A stretch of DNA of 64,000 bases, taken from an uncultured Candidatus Saccharibacteria bacterium (GTDB taxonomy: Bacteria; Patescibacteriota; Minisyncoccia; Phycocordibacterales; UBA9973). Within the stretch, counting starts at the first letter, position 1, and each line of letters begins with the position of its first letter. A program made the translations under genes and the position numbers. The notes under the pieces were generated by a model. The model saw only the letters and a list, made by a program, of their open reading frames with translations, was not told where the DNA came from and searched no databases. Below are positions 9,011 through 44,947 of the stretch, piece after piece. The DNA lies in the NCBI GenBank assembly GCA_964573395.1, contig CAZNJI010000003.1, positions 15,951-79,950 on the forward strand, given 5' to 3'.

Positions 9011-9073
9011 GGCCTAAAACATTTTTTCCAAAAATGTTCGGCCGAACATTTGCCAAAGCAAATGTTTTAGGCC
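9011..9073 (+). promoter_or_regulatory. Nested palindromic leader overlapping the 5' end of tRNA-Glu
   Basis: The outer arms GGCCTAAAACATTT (9011-9024) and AAATGTTTTAGGCC (9060-9073) are perfect reverse complements. They enclose a perfect 20-bp palindrome AAATGTTCGGCCGAACATTT (9032-9051). The 3' arm overlaps the first nucleotides of the tRNA (GGCC). Confidence 0.5.
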
Positions 9074-9141
9074 CTATCGTCTAACGGTTAGGACATCGGC
9101 TTCTCAAGCCGGTAATCGGGGTTCGATTCCCCGTAGGGTCA
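9070..9141 (+). tRNA. tRNA-Glu (anticodon CUC)
   Basis: Cloverleaf: acceptor GGCCCTA/TAGGGTC, anticodon stem TCGGC/GCCGG, loop TTCTCAA, T-arm CGGGG-TTCGATT-CCCCG. No encoded CCA. Confidence 0.85.
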
Positions 9142-9253
9142 CACGATTTTTATTCTTATTTTAACAATGTAATTTTTTGGTACCAAATGGGAGTTTGGAA
9201 CCAAAATAAAAAAGCCATCCTTTCGGATAAGCTTTAAGTAAAATTCTTTTAAT

Positions 9254-9583
9254 TTATTTACTCTTCATGAGCTGCGGAACCCTTTCGGCCAGTTCTTTTC
9301 CAGTAAATCCAAGCTCCTGCGCAAGCTTTAATGTATTTACCAGCATCTTTACGGTTGCTTCTTCCACCTGGCTTTTATTCATATAGGTGTACTTGCCCGT
9401 ATGATCATAGCTTTCACATACTTCCGCAATTTTACCGATAGACTTTTGCATATGAAGAACGCTGTGATTTAAAGCAAACATCGCTTTTTGCTCCGGTGGC
9501 ATATCTTTCATTACCGGGTAATTTTCCTCATTAAAAATGTACTTAGAGCCAATAAACTCTATAAATTGCTGTACTGTTTCCAT
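9254..9583 (-). CDS. Hypothetical 109-aa protein, possibly a MazG-like all-alpha NTP-PPase fold
   Basis: ATG start, own promoter and terminator, low GC. Weak resemblance to small MazG/YpjD-type proteins (ALNHSVLHMQKSIGKIAE...EEATVKML), but the catalytic acidic residues are not all conserved. Confidence 0.4.
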   Translation of the reverse strand: METVQQFIEFIGSKYIFNEENYPVMKDMPPEQKAMFALNHSVLHMQKSIGKIAEVCESYDHTGKYTYMNKSQVEEATVKMLVNTLKLAQELGFTGKELAERVPQLMKSK

Positions 9584-9635
9584 GTTTTTTGATTTTACCT
9601 ACACTACCATTTCCTTAATATTCGTCAATATTCGA

Positions 9636-9662
9636 TTCCAATTCCGACCACATTCGGTCACA
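9636..9662 (+). repeat. Islet junction motif copy a (TTCCAATTCCGACCACATTCGGTCACA)
   Basis: One of four related copies. It lies just upstream of the -35 element (CGTCAA at 9623-9628 on plus, i.e. TTGACG on the coding strand) of the gene at 9254-9583. Followed by GAAATTGGAAACAAAAAAGCC. Confidence 0.6.
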
Positions 9663-9685
9663 CACTGTAGTGGAAATTGGAAACA

Positions 9686-9720
9686 AAAAAGCCGTTCCTT
9701 TCGGTTCGGCTTTGTTTCAA
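9686..9720 (-). terminator. Probable intrinsic terminator of the gene at 9734-10279
   Basis: An imperfect hairpin (GCCGAACCGAAAGGAACGGC) followed by TTTTTTGTTTCC on the minus strand. Confidence 0.35.
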
Positions 9721-9733
9721 TGAAAACTTTTGA

Positions 9734-10279
9734 TCAATTCTTGCTGATTGTGACTTTTTCTTCTTTCATCAGAAAATGGTCAGGGGCAAACTCTGTTACG
9801 ATACCCACAATAACTGAAAGCGGTACATACATTCCCTGGACGATACAGTCGATTCCTTTCAGAGGCATTTTGAATTGCTCTTGCATAGATTCGTGCATTT
9901 CAGTTACCAGGTCAGACAGCTCAGGGTCATCTGTTTTTCCACTTTCGGAAACACTGTTAAGGATATCCACCGCTTCAGTGAAATGCTGGTAGAAACCCTC
10001 ATAATACATATTAGCCAGCTTCAGTCCTTCCGCACTGATATCTATCAGCGGAACCCATGTTGTGTACATTTCCCGTACTTCAGGGAACTTGTTCTTGTTG
10101 GATTCAGTAACAAACAGGCTTTTCATTGCTGTGTGCCAGTTGTTACGGAAGATTTGATGCCCAACCTTCATCATGTCCTTTGCGGCTGACATTTTTCCGA
10201 GAAAATCTTTTTTCTTTGAAGCTTTAACGAAATTGGTTTTTGCTTCTTCGAACAGTGAGAAATATTCAATCGGTTTCAT
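9734..10279 (-). CDS. Hypothetical 181-aa protein (islet module)
   Basis: ATG start. A perfect TTGACA-N17-TATTAT promoter lies upstream on the coding strand (about 10333-10361), and a structured 5' UTR contains the inverted repeats TTTAGTGGTT/AACCACTAAA. No recognisable domain. Confidence 0.45.
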   Translation of the reverse strand: MKPIEYFSLFEEAKTNFVKASKKKDFLGKMSAAKDMMKVGHQIFRNNWHTAMKSLFVTESNKNKFPEVREMYTTWVPLIDISAEGLKLANMYYEGFYQHFTEAVDILNSVSESGKTDDPELSDLVTEMHESMQEQFKMPLKGIDCIVQGMYVPLSVIVGIVTEFAPDHFLMKEEKVTISKN

Positions 10280-10434
10280 ATTTTGTTGATTTTAGTGGTT
10301 ACCAGAAATCCTATATCTGGACCTTTGGAAACCACTAAAACTCTCTCAAGGAACTCTATGGCTATATAATAGCATAATTATACATAAATGTCAATATATT
10401 ACTTTCCTATACAAACCAATACTTTTAAATAAAT

Positions 10435-10462
10435 GGTTCCAATTCTGACCACATTGGGTCAC
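10435..10462 (+). repeat. Islet junction motif copy b (GGTTCCAATTCTGACCACATTGGGTCAC)
   Basis: A near-identical copy of the junction motif. It ends in GGGTCAC, like the tRNA-Glu 3' end. Confidence 0.6.
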
Positions 10463-10534
10463 CTAAAGCAAAACTCTTGCTCTCGTTTACTACTAAACTC
10501 GTGGCTACCCTTTGGGTAGCCATAAATGGAGATT

Positions 10535-10565
10535 TAAATAAAAAGATCCCCTTTATTCGGGGATC
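10535..10565 (-). terminator. Intrinsic terminator of the gene at 10576-11355
   Basis: The hairpin GATCCCCGAATAAAGGGGATC is followed by a T-run on the minus strand. Confidence 0.55.
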
Positions 10566-10575
10566 GGATTAAATC

Positions 10576-11355
10576 TTATGCCTTTTCCAATTCCTTCTCT
10601 TTTCTGAAAGCAGTAACCGCAATGTCCTTGATTGAAAGAGTTGAATTGTTGCTTTGAAGCACAGTGTTTACCCATACGGTAAGGTCGTTAAAAAGCTTTG
10701 ATGCCTTGAATGCTTCGACAGAGATACTCTGTTCTTCGGTAAGAACTTCGTGGGCAACCAGCATGTCGCCTTTCTCGCAGACAAACACTACACCCAACCG
10801 TTCGTTCATCGAAGTGGCTGATCTTTCCAGAGGAACAATAGGAAGCGAATCCTTGATTCCATGAAGAATGACTTTCGTGTTACCCTTGTTTTCTTCAACG
10901 AGGAGCGTGATATCCGGTATGTGATTTTCCAAAAGAAACTCTACCCGAAACAGTACGTCTGCATAAAAATTCTTTTTGAATTCCATCGCTTTTTGTACCC
11001 CTTCAAGGTAGCCAGTCATCTTTTTGAAATTGTCCACCCCGTTGCTTATGTGGGCAACATCAACCTGGTTTGCTTCACGTTCCCTGATGTTTTCTTTCTT
11101 TTGGTCGAAACCAATAACACGATCGTATTCTTTGTTCGGGAAAATGTAATGGAAGCCGAAATAGTGTATCTTCATCTCTCTTCCACAACCACATTCACAC
11201 GAAAAACTAATATATGCATTCCATTTTTCGTTATCTTTGGTTGAGCGGAATAGGTCGTAGAAACTTTTGAGACGTATTTCTTCACTAATGTTGCCACAGT
11301 GCTCTACCCAATCAGGGAGGCTTTCTAAAAGGTTTATGTTTGTTTTTCTATTCAT
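10576..11355 (-). CDS. Hypothetical 259-aa protein with an N-terminal Cys/His cluster (islet module)
   Basis: ATG start. Carries WVEHCGN...SFSCECGCGREM...HYFGFHY. Upstream on the coding strand is a TTGCCA-N16-TAGTGT promoter. No recognisable domain. Confidence 0.45.
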   Translation of the reverse strand: MNRKTNINLLESLPDWVEHCGNISEEIRLKSFYDLFRSTKDNEKWNAYISFSCECGCGREMKIHYFGFHYIFPNKEYDRVIGFDQKKENIREREANQVDVAHISNGVDNFKKMTGYLEGVQKAMEFKKNFYADVLFRVEFLLENHIPDITLLVEENKGNTKVILHGIKDSLPIVPLERSATSMNERLGVVFVCEKGDMLVAHEVLTEEQSISVEAFKASKLFNDLTVWVNTVLQSNNSTLSIKDIAVTAFRKEKELEKA

Positions 11356-11457
11356 AAAGAACTAGTTTAGTGATTGATTATTTTGCTTACACTACCATTT
11401 ATCCTGAATTTGGCAATAGTCCTCTCATTTCATGTATACTGCTTTTCAACGCTAGTT

Positions 11458-11496
11458 GGTACCCCACTATTTCGGAAATCCAAGTCTTGGGGTCAC
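11458..11496 (+). repeat. Degenerate junction motif copy d (GGTACCCCACTATTTCGGAAATCCAAGTCTTGGGGTCACAG)
   Basis: Shares the GGT(T/A)CC start and the GGGGTCACA end with copies a-c; the middle has diverged. Confidence 0.35.
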
Positions 11497-11504
11497 AGAT
11501 TCTG

Positions 11505-11540
11505 GAAAAGAAAAAAGACCCGAAATATTCAGGTCTTTGG
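11505..11540 (-). terminator. Intrinsic terminator of the gene at 11554-12144
   Basis: The hairpin GACCTGAATATTTCGGGTC is followed by TTTTTTCTTTT on the minus strand. Confidence 0.55.
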
Positions 11541-11553
11541 ATAATTTTTTGTA

Positions 11554-12144
11554 CTAAGAAACATTTTGTAAAATGCGCAAACCATTTGTCCACGGAACAC
11601 CAATTTGGCAATCAATACCCCAGCGATTTCCGTATTGGCTACCCAGCCACCCTATGATAACAGGATAAATAGTAGTATCAGTTTTTTCTTCGTTAATCTT
11701 TACTTCAACTGAAACATATCCAACTAAAGTAGTGTTTGCATTTGTCAGTACGCCTTTTTCTCCTGACATTTGTTTCTTAGTCAATTGTAAAATTCTTTCA
11801 GCAATCTGGGTTGGGTCGGTAGTAGAGATGTTTAGATCAGACATAAGTTGCTTATCATACTTTGAGTGATTGTAGTGTCCTACTGATGAAATATATTCAC
11901 CTTTTGATCTCTCAGCCTGGTGAGTATAAAAGGTAGTTCCACACTGTAACTCTTTTTGTTTAAGAGTTTCAGCAGCTATCTCTTTGTCGGATATAAGCGG
12001 AAGAACATATTTAGTAAAGTTTTCTCCTTGCCAGTATTGTCTAAGAGCTTCCTTTCGCTTCTTGCGCTTTATACTTTTAACGGTGCAGATACCAATGTCT
12101 TGGTAGTGATTTTGCGGATTGTAGGTAGTGGAAGTACTTTTCAT
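11554..12144 (-). CDS. Hypothetical 196-aa protein (islet module)
   Basis: ATG start with its own promoter and terminator. No recognisable domain. Confidence 0.45.
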   Translation of the reverse strand: MKSTSTTYNPQNHYQDIGICTVKSIKRKKRKEALRQYWQGENFTKYVLPLISDKEIAAETLKQKELQCGTTFYTHQAERSKGEYISSVGHYNHSKYDKQLMSDLNISTTDPTQIAERILQLTKKQMSGEKGVLTNANTTLVGYVSVEVKINEEKTDTTIYPVIIGWLGSQYGNRWGIDCQIGVPWTNGLRILQNVS

Positions 12145-12193
12145 TTTTTAAATTTTCCTTACAATACCATCTCTCTGAGATCCGTCAATATCT

Positions 12194-12221
12194 GGTTCCA
12201 ATTCTGACCACATTCCCTCAC
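12194..12221 (+). repeat. Islet junction motif copy c (GGTTCCAATTCTGACCACATTCCCTCAC)
   Basis: Third near-identical copy. It lies directly upstream of the TTGACG-N16-TATTGT promoter (coding strand) of the gene at 11554-12144. Confidence 0.6.
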
Positions 12222-12261
12222 AATTTGAAAATTCTTCGTAGAGAGTATTTAGTTCCCCTCT

Positions 12262-12299
12262 TTTGTAATTAAAACCCACCCCTATATAGGGGGTGGGTT
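12262..12299 (-). terminator. Probable terminator of the phosphagen kinase gene
   Basis: The hairpin AACCCACCCCTATATAGGGGTGGGTT is followed by TTAATTAC on the minus strand. Confidence 0.45.
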
Positions 12300-12307
12300 A
12301 ATTTCGC

Positions 12308-13330
12308 TTAATTATTCAATGATTTCTCGAGCTCTATGAGTTTTTTTACTCCATGATAAAGCTGTTCGTAAATCTCACGTTCGGTTACCCCAAGGCGGCG
12401 CTTATTCGAAATGTCGTAGATGCCATCGGAAGATTCCGAGTGCTCTCCGTGTACGCCTCGGATCGATAGCCCAAGCGTTCCGCATATTGCTTTGAAGTTT
12501 TCACTCGCCGAAAGTTTTGGAATCTTAATGTGTACCGAAGCACGCATTGCTGTTCCTAAATTGGTTGGACAAGTGGTGTGGTATCCGCGGATATCATCAA
12601 AAGCAAAGTGAATTTTTTCATTGATGAAATCGAGTGCAGTTGCCAACCGCATGAATACTTCAGCAATGTCGGCACCCTGCTGCATGCTAATAATACGCAT
12701 ACTGTCTTCTTCTGAAATCCATACCAGGAACCTCTTATCATCTGAAAAGAAAATTCCGCGATTCTTCGGCCAGTCGCGGTTTACGCCAACACTTTCTAAA
12801 AAACGGTCTCCCTGCTTGAATAAGAAATGGTCTGCAACCAGTTTTTGCCGCATTTCTTCGCTCATGCCGTCAAGCGGAAAATATTCTCCCTTGAGCGATC
12901 CAGGAAGCTGCTGTAGTGCTGCAATAATTTCAGACTCCATAGCTGCCCGATCTGCCGCTGATATGGCAGAAGGAAACGCATATTTTGCAAAATTACGCCC
13001 AACCCGGATACGGGTTGATACAACATAACTCCCTTCTGGATCCAAGTTTTCAATAGAAAGACCAATGAGCGAAAAATCGCTTCTGTGGCCGGCCATGTCG
13101 TAGTGGTGATAATCCTTAATCACCGGGTCAAAAAGAGGAGCAAGCATAGTATACGATTCAGGATCGCCTGCATAGACACCAATACTTGAGTCTGGATTAT
13201 CAATGCCAGACTGAATGGCTTTTTGTAGTGTCCAGCCATGCGGAGTCGTTACATCGGCCAATTGTGTCTGTACTGCTTCACTGCAGTACTTTTTCATTAA
13301 CATGTCGGGGTTTGATTTAATTTCTGTCAT
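12308..13330 (-). CDS. Phosphagen (arginine/creatine-type) kinase, ATP:guanido phosphotransferase
   Basis: Active-site signature CPTNLGT (PROSITE pattern C-P-x-[ST]-N-[ILV]-G-T), ISNKRRLGVTE, and a eukaryote-like N-terminal domain (YAGDPESYTMLAPLFDPVIKDYHHY). 340 aa, full-length fold. Confidence 0.85.
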   Translation of the reverse strand: MTEIKSNPDMLMKKYCSEAVQTQLADVTTPHGWTLQKAIQSGIDNPDSSIGVYAGDPESYTMLAPLFDPVIKDYHHYDMAGHRSDFSLIGLSIENLDPEGSYVVSTRIRVGRNFAKYAFPSAISAADRAAMESEIIAALQQLPGSLKGEYFPLDGMSEEMRQKLVADHFLFKQGDRFLESVGVNRDWPKNRGIFFSDDKRFLVWISEEDSMRIISMQQGADIAEVFMRLATALDFINEKIHFAFDDIRGYHTTCPTNLGTAMRASVHIKIPKLSASENFKAICGTLGLSIRGVHGEHSESSDGIYDISNKRRLGVTEREIYEQLYHGVKKLIELEKSLNN

Positions 13331-13391
13331 AAGAACGATAGTTTACTGTAAATTTTGAAATAATACTATCCTATAAGGGTTTTTTGTCAAT

Positions 13392-13601
13392 TTATAAAGA
13401 TTGAATTGACAAATCAAAAAGCTTCGCTGTTTTAGGCGAAGCTTTGCTCACTTCCTGGTGCTGCATTGCCTTATCCCGCTGTTTTTTCAGAACGACAAAG
13501 ACGGCAATACAGATGAAGAGAATAATGATCATTGGCAGAAAGAATGTGTACTTTGGATTCTTGGTGTGATTAAAATCGTACCAAGCTTTTTTCATATCCA
13601 T
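13392..13601 (-). CDS. Possible small single-TM membrane protein
   Basis: 69 aa with an ATG start and one clear TM helix (FFLPMIIILFICIAVFVVL). Its 3' end overlaps a terminator-like hairpin at 13416-13445, so coding status is uncertain. Confidence 0.3.
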   Translation of the reverse strand: MDMKKAWYDFNHTKNPKYTFFLPMIIILFICIAVFVVLKKQRDKAMQHQEVSKASPKTAKLFDLSIQSL

Positions 13602-13683
13602 AATGAACCATTTTTGTGCGTATATAATACTATATTAATAGATTTTGTCAAATATAACAAGTTCTGGACTAATCAGTTATTTT

Positions 13684-15324
13684 TTATATTTTGAGCAACT
13701 CTCGCACTTTCTTAAACCCGAGTGCCACAATAAATGTTGAGAGCCGCGGACCGGTGTCTTTTGAAATAAGCAGGTTGTACAAATCTTTAAAGAAAGCGCG
13801 CTGGCGAACTGCGTTCTCTTTCTGATCGAGCGATTCATCTTTGGCAATATCGTATATAAACTGCTCAAGATTTTCTTCAATCAATTCGTTCTTTTCGATT
13901 GCAGTAAGAAGCGTAGCTACATACCCCTTTCCTTCTTCAGTCATTTTTTCGTAATATGCAGTATTTGGCTCAGTGCGAATAGAAATTTTTTCTTCTGTAT
14001 TGTATATGTCGAGCCAATTCTTCGCTTTTGGAATGCGATTCTTCAGTGCCTGGCTATCTACAGCCGCACCTGCGCTCTCAAAGAGCATCAGCATCTTCGA
14101 TGCATCCCATTGCATAATCTGTCCAAAGGCCACTGTCTGGCGGAACGACGTTGGTTGACCATAGTGCTTCTCGCTTTCTGAGAGCGACCAGGCAAGAGAG
14201 TCCGCCGCGATTGCATCCAATTCCCCATTCTCTAATTTTTTCACCCCCAGATCGTACTCTTCATACTGGCGATAAATTTCACTGTCAAATGCCAGGTTAA
14301 ACGGCTGTGCCGGCGTCTTGCGAAGATAGAGCCACTTTAAAAGCCGGGCTTCGTAAATCTGCAGCAAGTCCTCCGGCGAGACAGCGCCGCCTTTCGAGCC
14401 GGACATTTTGCCGTCCATTCCCACAATGCCGACGAATTTATACTCGACAAATACCGGCGGCTCGCTCGAAAAAATTTCTTTCGCGATGATGCTTGAAACA
14501 TCGAAGCTTGATCCTGGAGAAGCGTGGTCGTGCCCGCCCGGTTCGAACACCACTTCTTCATGCATCCAGCGCATTGGCCAATCTACTTTCCACGGAAGCT
14601 TGTAGCAAAAATCCGTTTTTAAATCGATCGTTTCTTCCTGCTTTGTTTCTTTGCAGTAATAGGTTACCTTCGATTCGCCGTTAAACGATCTGATTTCAGT
14701 GAAATCTTTGCCAGTAAAACGCGAATAAATTGCGATTGGGAAATAACTCTCAACAAAAGATTCCTTCGTGAGGCATTTTTCTTTGATCGCTTTTTCGCTC
14801 ATAAGCGAAAACATAACTTCGCCGATCTCTTTGCGCTTTTGCATCGCCAGAATTACCTTCTCAGCATAGGCGCCGCTCTCGTAGAGCTCGGTTTGGTTTT
14901 TATACTCAAGTTCAATGCCAAGCTTTCGCATTGATTCTTCGAATGGTTTTTGAAAACTTTCGGCATAGGATGCGTACTTGCCCGTCGGATCGGGAATCTT
15001 TGAAATCGGCATGCCGATGTATTGGCTAAACGATTCCGGCACCCCAGCCGGCACTTTTCGAAAGCGGTCGAAATTATCCCAGGAAAAAACAAATCGGGTT
15101 TGCTTGCCCTTTTCTTTGAGCGCCTGCAACACGGCGAAAGAGGTCATGACGTCACGGAAATTCCCGAAGTGCACCACTCCCGACGGGCTAATGCCTGCTG
15201 CGGCAGTGTACACATCCTTGTCTGGAAATGCCTTCAGTACCTCATCCGCAATGGTGCGCGCCCAGTGCTGGTTACCTGTTTCCAAGCTGCGTGGGTTGAT
15301 TCGCTTTGATTGATCGAATGCCAT
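13684..15324 (-). CDS. lysK: Lysyl-tRNA synthetase, class I (archaeal type)
   Basis: GISPSGVVHFGNFRD (class I HIGH region), WDNFDRFRKVP, IGMPISKIPDP, KMSGSKGG and GPRLSTFI match class I LysRS (Pyrococcus-type) motif for motif. Confidence 0.85.
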   Translation of the reverse strand: MAFDQSKRINPRSLETGNQHWARTIADEVLKAFPDKDVYTAAAGISPSGVVHFGNFRDVMTSFAVLQALKEKGKQTRFVFSWDNFDRFRKVPAGVPESFSQYIGMPISKIPDPTGKYASYAESFQKPFEESMRKLGIELEYKNQTELYESGAYAEKVILAMQKRKEIGEVMFSLMSEKAIKEKCLTKESFVESYFPIAIYSRFTGKDFTEIRSFNGESKVTYYCKETKQEETIDLKTDFCYKLPWKVDWPMRWMHEEVVFEPGGHDHASPGSSFDVSSIIAKEIFSSEPPVFVEYKFVGIVGMDGKMSGSKGGAVSPEDLLQIYEARLLKWLYLRKTPAQPFNLAFDSEIYRQYEEYDLGVKKLENGELDAIAADSLAWSLSESEKHYGQPTSFRQTVAFGQIMQWDASKMLMLFESAGAAVDSQALKNRIPKAKNWLDIYNTEEKISIRTEPNTAYYEKMTEEGKGYVATLLTAIEKNELIEENLEQFIYDIAKDESLDQKENAVRQRAFFKDLYNLLISKDTGPRLSTFIVALGFKKVRELLKI

Positions 15325-26246: not shown

Positions 26247-27941
26247 TTACTGCAGAACTGCTTTGATGCGCCGAATTCCCTGCGAAGATGCCTCCTCTTT
26301 CAGAATTTTAAACGTTCCAAGAATGCCCGTGCGCTCAACGTGCGGCCCGCCGCAGAATTCAGCGCTAATGGCGCTACCCTCTCCATCAGCCGAAGGACAA
26401 ATAAAATAAACACTTACGATTTCCGGATATTTTGCGCCGAATTCCATCTCTGCTCCGATTTTTTCAGCTTCCGCCAAAGGCATTTCTCGCTTTACAACAT
26501 TATAGTCAGCCACAATCCATTCATTAACCAGCTTTTCAACAGCAGATTTTTCTTCATCAGTCATTTTTCTGTCGAACGAGAAATCTAACCGCAAGCGTTC
26601 TTCAGTAATATTACTTCCCCGCTGCTTCACGTCTTTTCCGAGCACTCGCTGGAGTGCCGCCAAGAGCAAGTGGTGTGCCGTATGAAGCTTTGTGGTCTGT
26701 TCGCTCGTATTTGCAAGCCCTCCTTTGAATTTCTGTTCCGCTCCGGTGCGAGACGCATCCTGGTGTGCTTTCATTTCCGTTTCAAATTTTTCTCGATTAA
26801 TTGCGATGCCTTTTTCTTTGGCTAATTCCTCAGTCAGTTCAATCGGAAAACCGTAGGTAGTGGCAAGAATGAACGGATCAGTGCCCTTTTCAAATTCTTT
26901 CAGTCCCTGTTGTAGAGTTAATCGGAATTTTGATTCTTCTGCCGCAAGATATGTTTCAAGTTTCGTTTCTACTTCCTTATAAGTATCCTTGTAAACACGA
27001 ATAAATAATCGGGCAATAAATCGCAAGGTTGTTTCTGTACCTCCAAAATTTAAACCAAGAATATCTGAATAGCGCACTGCCCGACGAATAAGTCTCCGTA
27101 AAATGTATCCTCTATCTTTATTTGAAGGAGTAACACCATCACCCAAAAGGAGAAGACATGTGCGAATATGGTCAGCAATAATTCTCGCTGAATGTTCGTT
27201 AAAGTTCTTGGAATTTTCCTTTATTAAATCTATTACTGAACTAAATAGATCTGTTTCGTACACATTTGAGACACCTACTGCTTGTACCAACAAACGCTCA
27301 AGGCCCATACCGGTATCAATACCTTTTGTCTCAAGCGGTATAAACGTTCCGTCTTTTGTTTTGTAGTACTCGTTGAAAACGATGTTCCATACCTCAACGC
27401 CATCGATGTAAATTTCAGTTGTCGGTCCGCATGGCCCCTCGTCTCCCGTCGGACCCCAGAAATTATCTTCTTTGTTATGTTCCCTGATAACGAGATTCGA
27501 ATCGATGCTCTGCCAAATGGCGCGCGATTCTTCATCTGCCGGAATGCCGCTTTCATCATCTTTAAAAATAGATACGTAATCGATTGCAAGGCCAAGCTCT
27601 TTCGTAATGAATTCATAGGCATAGGTAATTGCTTCTTTTTTCCAGTAGCCGCCAAAGGAAAAATTGCCGAGCATTTCAAAAAACGTCAGGTGCGTGTCAT
27701 CACCAACCTCTTCGATGTCGCCCGTTCGAACGCATTTTTGCACGGTTGCTACATTCTGAGCACCAAAATCAGCTTCCGCGTTTTTCTGGCCAGTGTAGTA
27801 AGGCTTGAATTGCTGCATGCCGGCAGTCGTAAAAAGAACGGATGGGTCATCCTTTGGAATAAGCGAAGCGCTCGGAAGCACTGTATGCCCTCGTTTCTCA
27901 AAAAAATCTAAAAATCGTTTTCGGAGTTCAGTACTGGTCAT
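26247..27941 (-). CDS. alaS: Alanyl-tRNA synthetase, short form
   Basis: N-terminal class II AlaRS catalytic motifs (FTTAGMQQFKP, GNFSFGGYWK, WGPTGDEGPCGPTTEIY) plus HxxxH...CGGPH editing-domain motifs. Only 564 aa. Confidence 0.85.
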   Translation of the reverse strand: MTSTELRKRFLDFFEKRGHTVLPSASLIPKDDPSVLFTTAGMQQFKPYYTGQKNAEADFGAQNVATVQKCVRTGDIEEVGDDTHLTFFEMLGNFSFGGYWKKEAITYAYEFITKELGLAIDYVSIFKDDESGIPADEESRAIWQSIDSNLVIREHNKEDNFWGPTGDEGPCGPTTEIYIDGVEVWNIVFNEYYKTKDGTFIPLETKGIDTGMGLERLLVQAVGVSNVYETDLFSSVIDLIKENSKNFNEHSARIIADHIRTCLLLLGDGVTPSNKDRGYILRRLIRRAVRYSDILGLNFGGTETTLRFIARLFIRVYKDTYKEVETKLETYLAAEESKFRLTLQQGLKEFEKGTDPFILATTYGFPIELTEELAKEKGIAINREKFETEMKAHQDASRTGAEQKFKGGLANTSEQTTKLHTAHHLLLAALQRVLGKDVKQRGSNITEERLRLDFSFDRKMTDEEKSAVEKLVNEWIVADYNVVKREMPLAEAEKIGAEMEFGAKYPEIVSVYFICPSADGEGSAISAEFCGGPHVERTGILGTFKILKEEASSQGIRRIKAVLQ

Positions 27942-43730: not shown

Positions 43731-44117
43731 TTAGTTTTTTCCTTGTTTACGGTACGTTTGTTTAATTTCCGAGTAAAGCTTTTTGGTAGTAGCTTTCCTA
43801 GCGTTTTCCTTAGAAAACAATTCGACTGGGTATTTTTCTTTTACTTTTTTCAATTTTTCTTCAAGAATCTTTTGGAGATCCAAATCGAGTATGACACCCA
43901 TATCTAAACAGTAGATAAGAATATCTGCCAACTCTTTCTTTATTTTTTCTAATTGCTCTGCATCAACTTTTTTCTTATTGCGAGTATTGTCCCACTGGAA
44001 GATCTCAAGAAGCTCTGCACTTTCAATAACGAGAGATTTTGCTATATCCGCAGGGTGAAGATTGTCCCAACCTCTTTCTTCAAGATATTCTTTTACTTTT
44101 TTCTTAAGGCTATTCAT
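43731..44117 (-). CDS. MazG-like nucleoside triphosphate pyrophosphohydrolase (small all-alpha NTP-PPase)
   Basis: 128 aa. SLVIESAELLEIFQW...KKELADILIYCLDMG matches MazG/YpjD-type EExxE...E..D motifs. ATG at 44117. Confidence 0.65.
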   Translation of the reverse strand: MNSLKKKVKEYLEERGWDNLHPADIAKSLVIESAELLEIFQWDNTRNKKKVDAEQLEKIKKELADILIYCLDMGVILDLDLQKILEEKLKKVKEKYPVELFSKENARKATTKKLYSEIKQTYRKQGKN

Positions 44118-44130
44118 TACTTTTATTATA

Positions 44131-44177
44131 ATAAAAAATCCCGTCCCGTGGTTAGTACCACAGGACGGGTTTTGTTG
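44131..44177. terminator. Bidirectional intrinsic terminator
   Basis: The hairpin CCCGTCCCGTGG-TTAGTA-CCACAGGACGGG has A/T runs on both sides. Confidence 0.55.
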
Positions 44178-44179
44178 CA

Positions 44180-44947
44180 TCATTTCAGCAACTGCAATGC
44201 CTTGACGAGATACGTCTCGGCCATACCCCAGTCGATCTGGTCGAGAGCACTTCCGCTCGGCCGAAGCTTGCCTTGAGCATCAATCGAGATGTCGGGAAAC
44301 TCCCGATACAGAGGCTCGACGAGCCCGATGCTTTCAGGTCCGAGTCCGCCAGCCGCGACGATCCCGAGATTGGGAAACGCTTCCTTGATCGCTCGAGCGA
44401 ACGGAATGAGTCCCACAGCATCCATGCCGAGTCCTCGCCCCATGCTCTTGTCGAGAAGGACGTGCTGAGCGACACCTTCGTAACCCCGAAGCCGTTCGAC
44501 GACTTCTTGCGGATCGTTGTTGGCTTGCTCAATTGCATTCTTGCCGACTTGGAGAATGACCTCCAGCTGCTTGCGCGAGGCGTGAACCACACCGGCGACG
44601 TGTCCTGGATCTGGCCAGACCATGTCGAGTTGCAGAGCGTTGATACCGATGCCTCCGAACTTGATCGCGCGACCGAGACTTTGGAAAACATCGATCGCAT
44701 CGTAGTCCGCATAGTGCAGGCAGTTCATCGTCTCGTCCGAGCCGAAGATGTCAGCGATCGTCTCCTTGGAAGGGAACGCTTTCGTCCATTTGGTCTCAAG
44801 ACCATGAAGCGTCTTGTAGCTCATCATCACGCCGACATGAAGCCGACGGTTCTGTTCTGCTCCAAGGTTCGTCTTGAACACCGCGAGCATACGTTGGACC
44901 TGCTCAAAAGTCATGAAGTCGGTGATGCCGACGTATGGGATGTACAT
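44180..44947 (-). CDS. TrpF-like (phosphoribosylanthranilate-isomerase fold, TIM barrel) protein, GC-rich and probably horizontally acquired
   Basis: Weak PRAI-like motifs (YVGITDF, LQLDMVW, VLLDKSMGRGLGMD, IVAAGGLGPESIG). About 57% GC with strongly GC3-biased codons, against ~45-48% in its neighbours. Confidence 0.45.
   Translation of the reverse strand: MYIPYVGITDFMTFEQVQRMLAVFKTNLGAEQNRRLHVGVMMSYKTLHGLETKWTKAFPSKETIADIFGSDETMNCLHYADYDAIDVFQSLGRAIKFGGIGINALQLDMVWPDPGHVAGVVHASRKQLEVILQVGKNAIEQANNDPQEVVERLRGYEGVAQHVLLDKSMGRGLGMDAVGLIPFARAIKEAFPNLGIVAAGGLGPESIGLVEPLYREFPDISIDAQGKLRPSGSALDQIDWGMAETYLVKALQLLK

Follow-up and report, generated by a model that had tools for sequence, protein, structure and literature searches.

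A predicted arginine kinase in Patescibacteria: a constrained bacterial clade carried as an apparently self-contained gene cassette

What would a phosphagen kinase do in a member of the Patescibacteria (Candidate Phyla Radiation, CPR), bacteria thought to have a minimal fermentative energy metabolism and to depend on a host? The question is raised by a gene at positions 12308–13330 of a 64,000-nt stretch of contig CAZNJI010000003.1 (the whole stretch is referred to as the window; features lie on its minus strand unless stated otherwise), which encodes a protein of the arginine-kinase type; with enzymes of this type, animals maintain a rapidly accessible energy reserve. We consider it likely that the gene specifies a functional cytoplasmic L-arginine kinase that buffers ATP, that it forms a monocistronic cassette and belongs to a clade specific to Patescibacteria, and that it is a patchily distributed accessory gene, probably exchanged laterally. 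The enzyme type itself is known; new is a large, constrained, and apparently mobile arginine-kinase clade in the CPR. Because homology predicts the enzyme and NCBI already names some clade members 'phosphagen kinase' or 'arginine kinase', the advance lies in distribution and context, not in mechanism. Full-text literature searches returned no paper tying arginine or phosphagen kinases to CPR, Patescibacteria, Parcubacteria, or Paceibacteria, and the family in these bacteria is apparently undescribed.

The coding sequence starts with ATG and comprises 340 codons plus a stop, as supported by the open reading frame (ORF) listing and by Pfam and PDB matches. The N-terminal α-helical domain ATP-gua_PtransN (PF02807) covers residues 9–72 (13115–13306; E-value, 8.5e-24; 84.2 bits against a cutoff of 25.7; profile positions 4–67 of 67), and the C-terminal catalytic domain ATP-gua_Ptrans (PF00217) covers residues 131–337 (12320–12940; E-value, 4.6e-72; 242.1 bits against a cutoff of 22.4; profile positions 2–202 of 203). 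The active-site signature CPTNLGT (residues 254–260; 12551–12571) matches the pattern C-P-x(0,1)-[ST]-N-[ILV]-G-T including the reactive cysteine (Cys254, equivalent to Limulus C271), the motif NKRRLGVTE occupies residues 309–317 (12380–12406), and the N-terminal stretch YAGDPESYTMLAPLFDPVIKDYHHY (YAGDPESY...DYHHY) corresponds to residues 53–77. A first-pass annotation of this DNA had singled out the same ORF and motifs, all of which are in place, and had proposed a search for the two Pfam domains, both of which score far over their gathering thresholds.

Among solved structures, arginine kinases were matched with E-values of 1e-95 to 1e-108, the top match being the Anthopleura arginine kinase (PDB ID: 4RF6; ~1e-108 per domain). 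Schistosoma taurocyamine kinase (4WO8; ~1e-83 to 1e-88 per domain) ranked second, followed by creatine, glycocyamine, and lombricine kinases (1e-65 to 1e-73; creatine kinase, ~1e-72) and by solved McsB (1e-26 to 1e-30). Judged from these E-values, sequence similarity is greatest to characterised arginine kinases and lower to other phosphagen kinases. An AlphaFold2 model built from a 42-sequence alignment has a mean predicted local distance difference test score (pLDDT) of 90.1 and a predicted template modelling score (pTM) of 0.89, with low confidence only at residues ~171–190 and ~291–300, regions that are mobile loops known in the phosphagen-kinase family. The predicted fold has two domains, a small helical N-domain and an α/β saddle. 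In a Foldseek search of the PDB, the model gave template modelling (TM) scores of 0.86–0.91 to more than 40 solved arginine and creatine kinase chains (0.88–0.91 for the arginine kinases), including 0.90 to the arginine-bound Anthopleura kinase (4RF7) and 0.88 to the Limulus transition-state complex (1BG0). The ORF thus encodes a complete two-domain phosphagen kinase of arginine-kinase type.

The metazoan arginine kinases (Limulus, 1M15/1BG0; Anthopleura japonicus, 4RF6–9) have the same fold (TM, 0.88–0.90) and, in common with the present protein, the active-site signature and the arginine and nucleotide ligands, with sequence identities of 44.5% for Limulus and 47–50% for Anthopleura. Compared with arthropod kinases, the present protein is without the first ~15 N-terminal residues, and it differs from the Limulus enzyme at G64S, V65I, and R312H. 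In contrast to the contiguous dimer of Anthopleura, it is a single-domain kinase, bacterial and monocistronic.

The catalytic ATP:guanido phosphotransferase domain is also homologous to that of McsB, and some annotation pipelines (Joint Genome Institute) name homologues 'protein-arginine kinase', so that the protein might be viewed as an McsB-like protein-arginine kinase tagging proteins for degradation. McsB, however, is without the N-terminal small-substrate domain and has a C-terminal dimerisation/phosphoarginine-binding domain, and the present protein is its opposite on both counts: the N-terminal domain is present, and the polypeptide stops 3 residues past the catalytic domain, leaving no McsB C-terminal domain. 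The five NCBIfam McsB equivalog models aligned from residue 95 or later only and gave 80–154 bits against cutoffs of 381–679 (best, 154.1 against 385). McsB acts with the partners McsA, ClpC, and CtsR, and none of mcsA, clpC, and ctsR was found among the annotated ORFs of the window or the called genes of the fetched loci L013–L021. McsB identity was rejected on the NCBIfam cutoffs and the domain architecture, in line with the first-pass annotation, which had set the protein apart from McsB as a small-molecule phosphagen kinase; a role in protein tagging appears extremely improbable.

For mapping of the active site, residues were numbered according to Limulus arginine kinase (1M15), with the reference validated against 1RL9 and 1M15 (357 of 357 positions in register; two variant residues corrected). 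The protein has D62, S63, G66, Y68, Y89, R124, R126, R193, E224, E225, D226, R229, C271, P272, T273, N274, R280, R309, E314, H315, D324, and R330, and these residues show no or almost no variation across 81 clade members, with the exception of Y89 and R124, for which only the query protein was examined. They include the nucleotide-phosphate arginines (R107, R109, R212, R263, and R291 of the query, equivalent to Limulus R124, R126, R229, R280, and R309), the catalytic glutamates (E208 and E296; Limulus E225 and E314), and D47, R176, Y74, and H297 (Limulus D62, R193 of the interdomain bridge, Y89, and H315). No loss of catalytic residues, which the first-pass annotation had named as a ground for abandoning the assignment, was seen in the alignment.

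The guanidino-specificity loop DSSIGVY (13172–13192; Limulus D62–Y68 in the alignment) has no insertion or deletion relative to Limulus arginine kinase and is thus of arginine-kinase length; its D62, S63, G66, and Y68 are invariant in the 81 CPR-clade proteins. In arginine kinases, S63, Y68, and the D62–R193 bridge hold the α-carboxylate and α-amino groups of L-arginine, and E225, C271, and E314 are the guanidinium ligands. Since the ligands of the α-carboxylate and α-amino groups are present, the substrate is expected to be free L-arginine, not peptidyl-arginine or a shorter guanidino compound. The loop length and the invariance of the arginine contacts in the clade make L-arginine the strongly predicted substrate from sequence, a narrowing of the first-pass view, in which the substrate had been left unspecified.

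A phosphagen kinase for another guanidino substrate (taurocyamine, glycocyamine, creatine, agmatine, or D-arginine) would have in its favour that the Schistosoma taurocyamine kinases, which provide the second-best PDB match, are derived from arginine kinases, and that the specificity loop differs from that of Limulus by G64S and V65I. Positions 64 and 65 touch the substrate via the backbone, and the active domain 2 of Anthopleura arginine kinase likewise has Ser at position 64. In the PDB alignment, Schistosoma taurocyamine kinase is without the DS-x-x-G-x-Y motif. Creatine and glycocyamine kinases carry deletions in the specificity loop, whereas the loop here is of full length, and together with lombricine kinases they are matched far less closely than arginine kinases in the E-values given above. 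With the L-arginine and guanidinium ligands all present, and all but Y89 (seen in the query only) invariant in the clade, a different substrate seems improbable, and L-arginine is retained as the predicted one.

The window itself is ordinary core chromosome of a Paceibacterota-type (CPR) genome. Its gene order runs from gatB, obg, a MYG1-family gene, yqeY, rmuC, tRNA-Glu, and four ORFans to the kinase, continues with lysS, dnaJ, dnaK, grpE, rpsI, rplM, rplQ, rpoA, rpsD, rpsK, and rpsM, and ends on the far side with alaS, mnmA, frr, mreB, ftsA, ftsZ, lepA, murJ, and leuS. Each named top match of RpoA belongs to Candidatus Paceibacterota, Nomurabacteria, or Patescibacteria, and an identical kinase and an identical RpoA sit together on one 94,098-bp NCBI contig. 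The host is thus a small-genome CPR bacterium, as the first-pass annotation had supposed in speaking of a streamlined bacterial genome.

Homologues of the kinase form at least 82 clusters (defined at 90% identity) with 69–100% identity to the query, all from metagenome-assembled genomes or metagenomes, and those that are labelled belong to Patescibacteria. Next come the kinases of Myxococcota (Archangium and Vitiosangium, 66–67% identity; Myxococcus, 55–60%) and a second Paceibacterota group (57–59%), with eukaryotic arginine kinases, including Percolomonas and two-domain molluscan, flatworm, and cnidarian enzymes, at ~54% or less. A search of 50%-identity representatives returned mostly unnamed multi-domain eukaryote-like proteins and was of use only in sampling for the phylogeny. 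The latter was inferred by neighbour joining from 334 kinase domains (100 bootstrap replicates, run on a subset of 111 taxa); the arginine kinases of Desulfotalea, Sulfurovum, Moritella, and Oceanithermus were left out of it. Bootstrap values were 100 for the main CPR clade, 83 for Myxococcota, and 97 for the two combined. By this sequence-based phylogeny, the kinase appears to be a member of a monophyletic Patescibacteria clade that is sister to the Myxococcota arginine kinases and is not nested among eukaryotic sequences. The second CPR clade (bootstrap, 91) was joined to the main one in none of the replicates (bootstrap, 0), so that the kinase would have arisen independently at least twice in Patescibacteria. 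The second clade is never sister to the main one, and its representative L010:1121–2116 is inserted between obg (40–1029) and yqeY (2200–2652).

The tree alters two of the statements made on the DNA beforehand. The label 'eukaryote-type' is apt only insofar as it means 'not McsB', as the nearest relatives are bacterial (the CPR clusters and Myxococcota), and the comment that such kinases are rare in bacteria and generally explained by horizontal transfer is misleading in view of so large a Patescibacteria clade with a Myxococcota sister; the proposed phylogenetic comparison placed the kinase with these two groups and not with eukaryotes. If the gene had recently come from a eukaryote, or were a eukaryotic contaminant or an assembly error, this would be in keeping with the metazoan origin of the top solved-structure matches and with the literature debate on a eukaryotic origin of bacterial arginine kinases (PMC6429109). 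The gene is nevertheless flanked by bacterial core genes on one contig and has a bacterial promoter and terminator, the identical protein recurs on the NCBI contig that also bears the identical RpoA, and the Patescibacteria, then the Myxococcota at 55–67%, are closer than any eukaryote. Moreover, synonymous sites are saturated between CPR copies, and their GC content has ameliorated to each host. Contamination and recent eukaryotic horizontal gene transfer were rejected on the genomic context, the clade membership, and the saturated synonymous sites; a eukaryotic source is hardly credible.

Arginine kinases have been characterised from Desulfotalea psychrophila, Myxococcus xanthus, and Sulfurovum lithotrophicum; the bacterial enzymes are described as rare and patchy, occurring in few species, almost all Proteobacteria, and their origin is debated as either ancient or acquired from eukaryotes (PMC11492440; PMC6429109). 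Fruiting-body and spore formation in M. xanthus reportedly require its enzyme (PMC11492440). The Myxococcota arginine kinases (Myxococcus xanthus Ark, Archangium, and Vitiosangium) resemble the present protein in their size of ~330–345 aa, in combining both phosphagen-kinase domains in a single unit, in their short N-terminus, and in the catalytic and arginine-binding residues; identity is 55–67%, and in the tree they are the sister group (bootstrap, 97). They differ in their hosts, which are large-genome, respiring, predatory social bacteria in contrast to an ultra-small-genome CPR bacterium, and the CPR clade is separately monophyletic (bootstrap, 100) with its own conserved promoter and leader cassette. 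The enzymes of Desulfotalea psychrophila, Sulfurovum, Moritella, and Oceanithermus are likewise two-domain proteins with all catalytic residues, from Proteobacteria-type or Deinococcota hosts and not Patescibacteria (PMC11492440; PMC6429109). On the far-reaching reading put forward below as a doubtful conjecture, the size and depth of the clade, together with Myxococcota, would shift the debate on the origin of phosphagen kinases to a bacterial root and away from eukaryote-to-bacterium transfer. The kinase adds a new phylum to the phosphagen-kinase phylogeny, and the enzyme can be expressed and assayed.

The kinase gene appears to constitute a self-contained monocistronic cassette, judging from its flanking signals. 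A near-consensus σ70-type promoter (TTGACA-16-TAGTAT; extended form TAGTATTAT; 13363–13390) lies 32 nt upstream of the ATG, separated from it by a leader of ~32 nt between the −10 element and the start codon (13331–13362; identified by multi-locus alignment and BLASTN) with no obvious Shine–Dalgarno sequence. On the opposite side, an intrinsic terminator hairpin with a 10-bp GC-rich stem, followed by UUUUAAUU (U-run), begins 9 nt past the stop codon (12273–12299; −18.9 kcal/mol, z = −3.5). At least 10 of the 12 loci aligned, which come from varied contexts, share the conserved TTGACA, a 16–17-nt spacer, TAGTATTAT, and the ~32-nt leader, and a hairpin with a T-run directly past the kinase stop is found in 10 of 11 aligned loci, with differing sequences. 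With BLASTN, each of the eight loci compared becomes similar to the window from ~60 nt before the ATG (approximately window positions 13390–13398). Against an expectation of 0.05, the window contains 4 copies of the promoter form TTGACA-N16-18-TAKTAT; one of them precedes the ribosomal-protein/rpoA operon, and such a strong promoter would suggest high expression of the kinase. The claim in the first-pass annotation that the gene has its own promoter and terminator is thus borne out and extends to its relatives. An Rfam search of the conserved 5′ region and leader gave no match to a riboswitch or leader family. A sub-threshold match to the enterobacterial rnk leader at 12263–12369 (27 bits against a gathering score of 50; E = 0.17), over the 3′ end of the kinase gene and the terminator, is most likely due to chance.

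The same annotation had also described the gene as a module of a low-GC islet. The low-GC stretch is real, with a GC content of 0.38–0.43 over 9–14 kb against 0.47 (0.472) for the whole window, but the genuinely low-GC part consists of the neighbouring hypothetical ORFs (0.37–0.41), and the kinase gene (0.446) falls inside the range of native genes (0.41–0.53). The islet proper, given here as context, is a variable hotspot downstream of the kinase with four ORFan ORFs of 109, 181, 259, and 196 aa (9143–12272), which relatives do not share, and its far boundary is a tRNA-Glu(CUC) gene (9070–9142, plus strand; ARAGORN and Rfam). A search around the kinase in the window revealed neither an integrase nor an att-like copy of the tRNA 3′ end. 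The near-native GC content, the lack of att and integrase, and the junction shared with some relatives speak against the kinase as cargo of a tRNA-Glu-linked low-GC islet, an idea that was rejected in this form; the absence of the gene from the junction in other relatives (L018–L020) and the rate discordance described below point the other way, and mobility as such is plausible.

The closest kinase homologues, with 87–90% identity, are located downstream of the gene block of the window in the loci L013/L014, L015/L016, and L017. L013–L016 have the order rpoA-rplQ-rplM-rpsI-grpE-dnaK-dnaJ-lysS-small ORF-kinase, continued by variable ORFs-tRNA-Glu(CUC)-DUF3298-rmuC...yqeY-obg-gatB, and in L013 the tRNA-Glu(CUC) gene, whose relative orientation is that seen in the window, separates the kinase from the DUF3298 gene. 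The stretch from the kinase to this tRNA gene holds the four ORFans in the window and one 269-aa ORF in L013. The hotspot of L015 contains ~10 kb of cyclic-oligonucleotide-based antiphage signalling system (CBASS) and prophage-like genes with no tRNA in view; within L015:12916–21017 are a trypsin-like protease, Cap15 and CD-NTase as a CBASS-like pair, an S24 peptidase, an N6/N4 DNA methyltransferase, and a terminase-like gene, and from this content we take the site to accept defence and prophage cargo. L017 has in common with the window only lysS and the small ORF upstream, and its downstream genes differ. L018–L020, which were sampled via RpoA, are nearer to the window by core genes (DnaK identity, 85–87% against 77% for L014) and keep rpoA...dnaJ-lysS, but lysS is followed by EamA and purD in L018 and by cysS and corA in L019 and L020; no kinase was found in them by tblastn within 10 kb on either side of rpoA.

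Among the GTDB loci L001–L011, the neighbours of the kinase are not conserved. Small GIY-YIG-like ORFs lie 0.3–1.6 kb from the kinase in three of them (L003:6722–7009, L006:1514–1768, and L010:2817–3062), and a serine-recombinase-like gene pair is located two ORFs upstream of it in another (L002:2370–3784); these genes hint that the kinase tends toward mobile or variable regions. No viral carrier of the kinase was found in IMG/VR. In the closest lineage, an ORF of ~105 aa that is not present in the window is tied to the kinase. It is a conserved 103–106-aa ORF (MQ..SYAPLIEFHGY...) with no Pfam or NCBIfam match, lying immediately upstream of the kinase in that lineage and in L002 (L014:9584–9895, L015:9581–9901, L017:1627–1944, and L002:3840–4157). 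Because the two are paired in L002 despite its otherwise different wider context, they may form a two-gene module. In the window, its place is taken by an unrelated 69-aa ORF with a single transmembrane segment (13392–13601) that has its own promoter (13624–13651) and terminator (13418–13445).

Per-gene nonsynonymous and synonymous rates (dN and dS) were estimated by the Nei–Gojobori method. Between the window and ten GTDB loci, the proportion of synonymous differences (pS) in the kinase is 0.77–0.85, which is saturated, and that of nonsynonymous differences (pN) is only 0.09–0.20 (0.32 for L010 of the second clade). This low pN at saturated pS indicates strong purifying selection, and dN/dS is ~0.05 for a non-saturated pair. 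GC content at third codon positions (GC3) of the kinase spans 0.19–0.50 among the genomes and is correlated with the GC content of the host flanks (r = 0.76, p = 0.007); as GC3 tracks the flanks, the copies have ameliorated to their hosts. Between L014 and L015, the kinase (dN, 0.049; dS, 1.04) behaves as its neighbouring genes do (dN, 0.02–0.05; dS, 0.45–1.0). Between the window and L014, in contrast, the kinase has a dN of 0.071 and a pS of 0.667, whereas the core genes have dN values of 0.175 (DnaK), 0.199 (RpoA), 0.322 (DnaJ), and 0.419 (GrpE) with saturated pS (0.78–0.81). The ratio of the window–L014 dN to the L014–L015 dN is accordingly 1.45 for the kinase against 6–10 for DnaK, DnaJ, RpoA, and GrpE, and the divergence of the kinase from its relatives is ~4–7 times lower than core genes predict. 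The kinase is not at a plateau of divergence, since its dN within the clade reaches 0.23, and no mosaic or recombinant structure was detected in it, nucleotide identity to L014 being uniform at 0.76–0.86. This rate discordance suggests lateral exchange within Paceibacteria; the simplest reading of the sequences is that the window copy is much younger than the split of the genomes and arrived by lateral acquisition or allelic replacement from a related Paceibacterium.

Strict vertical inheritance would instead make the kinase ancestral at the lysS | tRNA-Glu junction, with repeated loss elsewhere and with similarity reflecting extreme constraint. It accounts for the same junction in the window and L013–L016 (in L017 on the upstream side only), for the concordance of the kinase with neighbouring genes in both dS and dN between L014 and L015, and for the ameliorated GC content, and it agrees with the failure to find a viral carrier in IMG/VR or an integrase or att repeat flanking the kinase in the window. 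It is harder to reconcile with the deep-to-shallow dN ratio, with a window–L014 pS below the saturated values of the core genes, and with the absence of a plateau. Furthermore, the genomes nearest by core genes (L018 and L019) are without the kinase at the junction, the immediate flanks of the window copy are on both sides unlike those of L014 and L015, and the contexts in L001–L009 are unrelated, once beside a serine recombinase. We therefore consider strict vertical descent rather unlikely, if a good deal less so than the alternatives for substrate and source discussed above, and prefer probable exchange between related lineages.

In the proposed mechanism, the kinase (EC 2.7.3.3-type) would catalyse the reversible reaction Arg + MgATP ↔ phospho-L-arginine + MgADP, and the phosphoarginine pool would buffer ATP in the Paceibacterota (CPR) cell. 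Transcription would start at the strong near-consensus σ70-type promoter and end at the gene's own intrinsic terminator, and the cassette, located beside tRNA-Glu at a synteny junction or variable hotspot, would probably be exchanged between related lineages. ATP buffering combined with a promoter of housekeeping strength, strong constraint, and apparent exchange would mean that temporal energy management matters in tiny cells. The physiological setting is speculative and might be storage between host contacts or bursts of ATP demand. A more far-reaching proposal, which we put forward as a doubtful conjecture, is that a phosphoarginine store represents a lineage-specific adaptation of some episymbiotic, non-respiring Paceibacteria, in which ATP is banked on the host and spent in host-free periods or at high demand, with the cassette being exchanged laterally; more radically, phosphoarginine or arginine might be scavenged from a phosphagen-containing host.

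Several points weigh against this account of a laterally exchanged, ATP-buffering L-arginine kinase. For every Patescibacteria member, substrate and role are read from homology, and the specificity loop has the two differences from Limulus noted above. Within the 64-kb window, no arginine uptake or catabolism gene and no energy-demanding machine is linked to the kinase, and an all-versus-all neighbour comparison of 11 loci revealed no conserved functional partner gene, only GIY-YIG-like selfish ORFs recurring. The tree was built by neighbour joining only, and its deeper nodes have bootstrap values below 10. With respect to lateral exchange, among-site rate heterogeneity could have exaggerated the rate discordance, the genomes of L018–L020 could carry the kinase outside the 10 kb on either side of rpoA, and the junction common to L013–L015 also fits ancestral presence with repeated loss.

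The four islet ORFs gave no Pfam, NCBIfam, or PHROG matches, and the 259- and 196-aa ORFs, the two that were searched against a phage collection, had no match there. No full-length homologue of the four was found among the fetched loci; the sole match is that of the 109-aa ORF (9254–9583) to an ORF that adjoins the kinase convergently in another genome (L009:8319–8966; blastp gave 31% identity over 84 aa, and tblastn 42% over 38 aa). On visual inspection, this ORF of 109 aa resembles an all-α MazG-type nucleoside triphosphate pyrophosphohydrolase, although Pfam gives no match. A repeat of ~45–78 nt with 73–80% identity occurs at 9585–9662, 10418–10462, 11371–11400, and 12145–12222, directly upstream (minus strand) of each of the four ORFans and not upstream of the kinase. 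The copy at 12145–12222 holds a promoter-like TTGACG-N17-TATTGT, and the repeat core, GGTTCCAATTCTGACCACATT(G/C)GGTCAC, is loosely like the 3′ end of the adjacent tRNA-Glu; one possibility for the repeat is a regulatory module common to the four ORFs, another a relic of serial insertion. Elsewhere in the window, a 255-aa ORF without a Pfam family (44180–44947), next to a MazG-like gene (43731–44183), is 34% identical to the 269–270-aa ORF immediately downstream of the kinase in L013–L016, and by this match the kinase-adjacent gene of those loci has a homologue elsewhere in the window genome.

Upstream of the kinase, the class I lysyl-tRNA synthetase gene lysS (13684–15324) is the first gene of the lysS-dnaJ-dnaK-grpE-rpsI-rplM-rplQ-rpoA block. 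The synthetase has been displaced in situ: the window and L019:9418–11046 (68% identical) have the class I enzyme directly after dnaJ (TIGR00467, 397 bits), and class II enzymes occupy exactly the same position in L014:8047–9513, L015:8063–9529, L017:111–1571, L018, and L020 (NF001756, ~480 bits in the three tested). The alanyl-tRNA synthetase of the window (26247–27941) is only 564 aa long, ends at the tRNA_SAD domain, and is apparently without the usual C-terminal region, and a similarly short enzyme (563–605 aa) is encoded in L018, L020, and L021.

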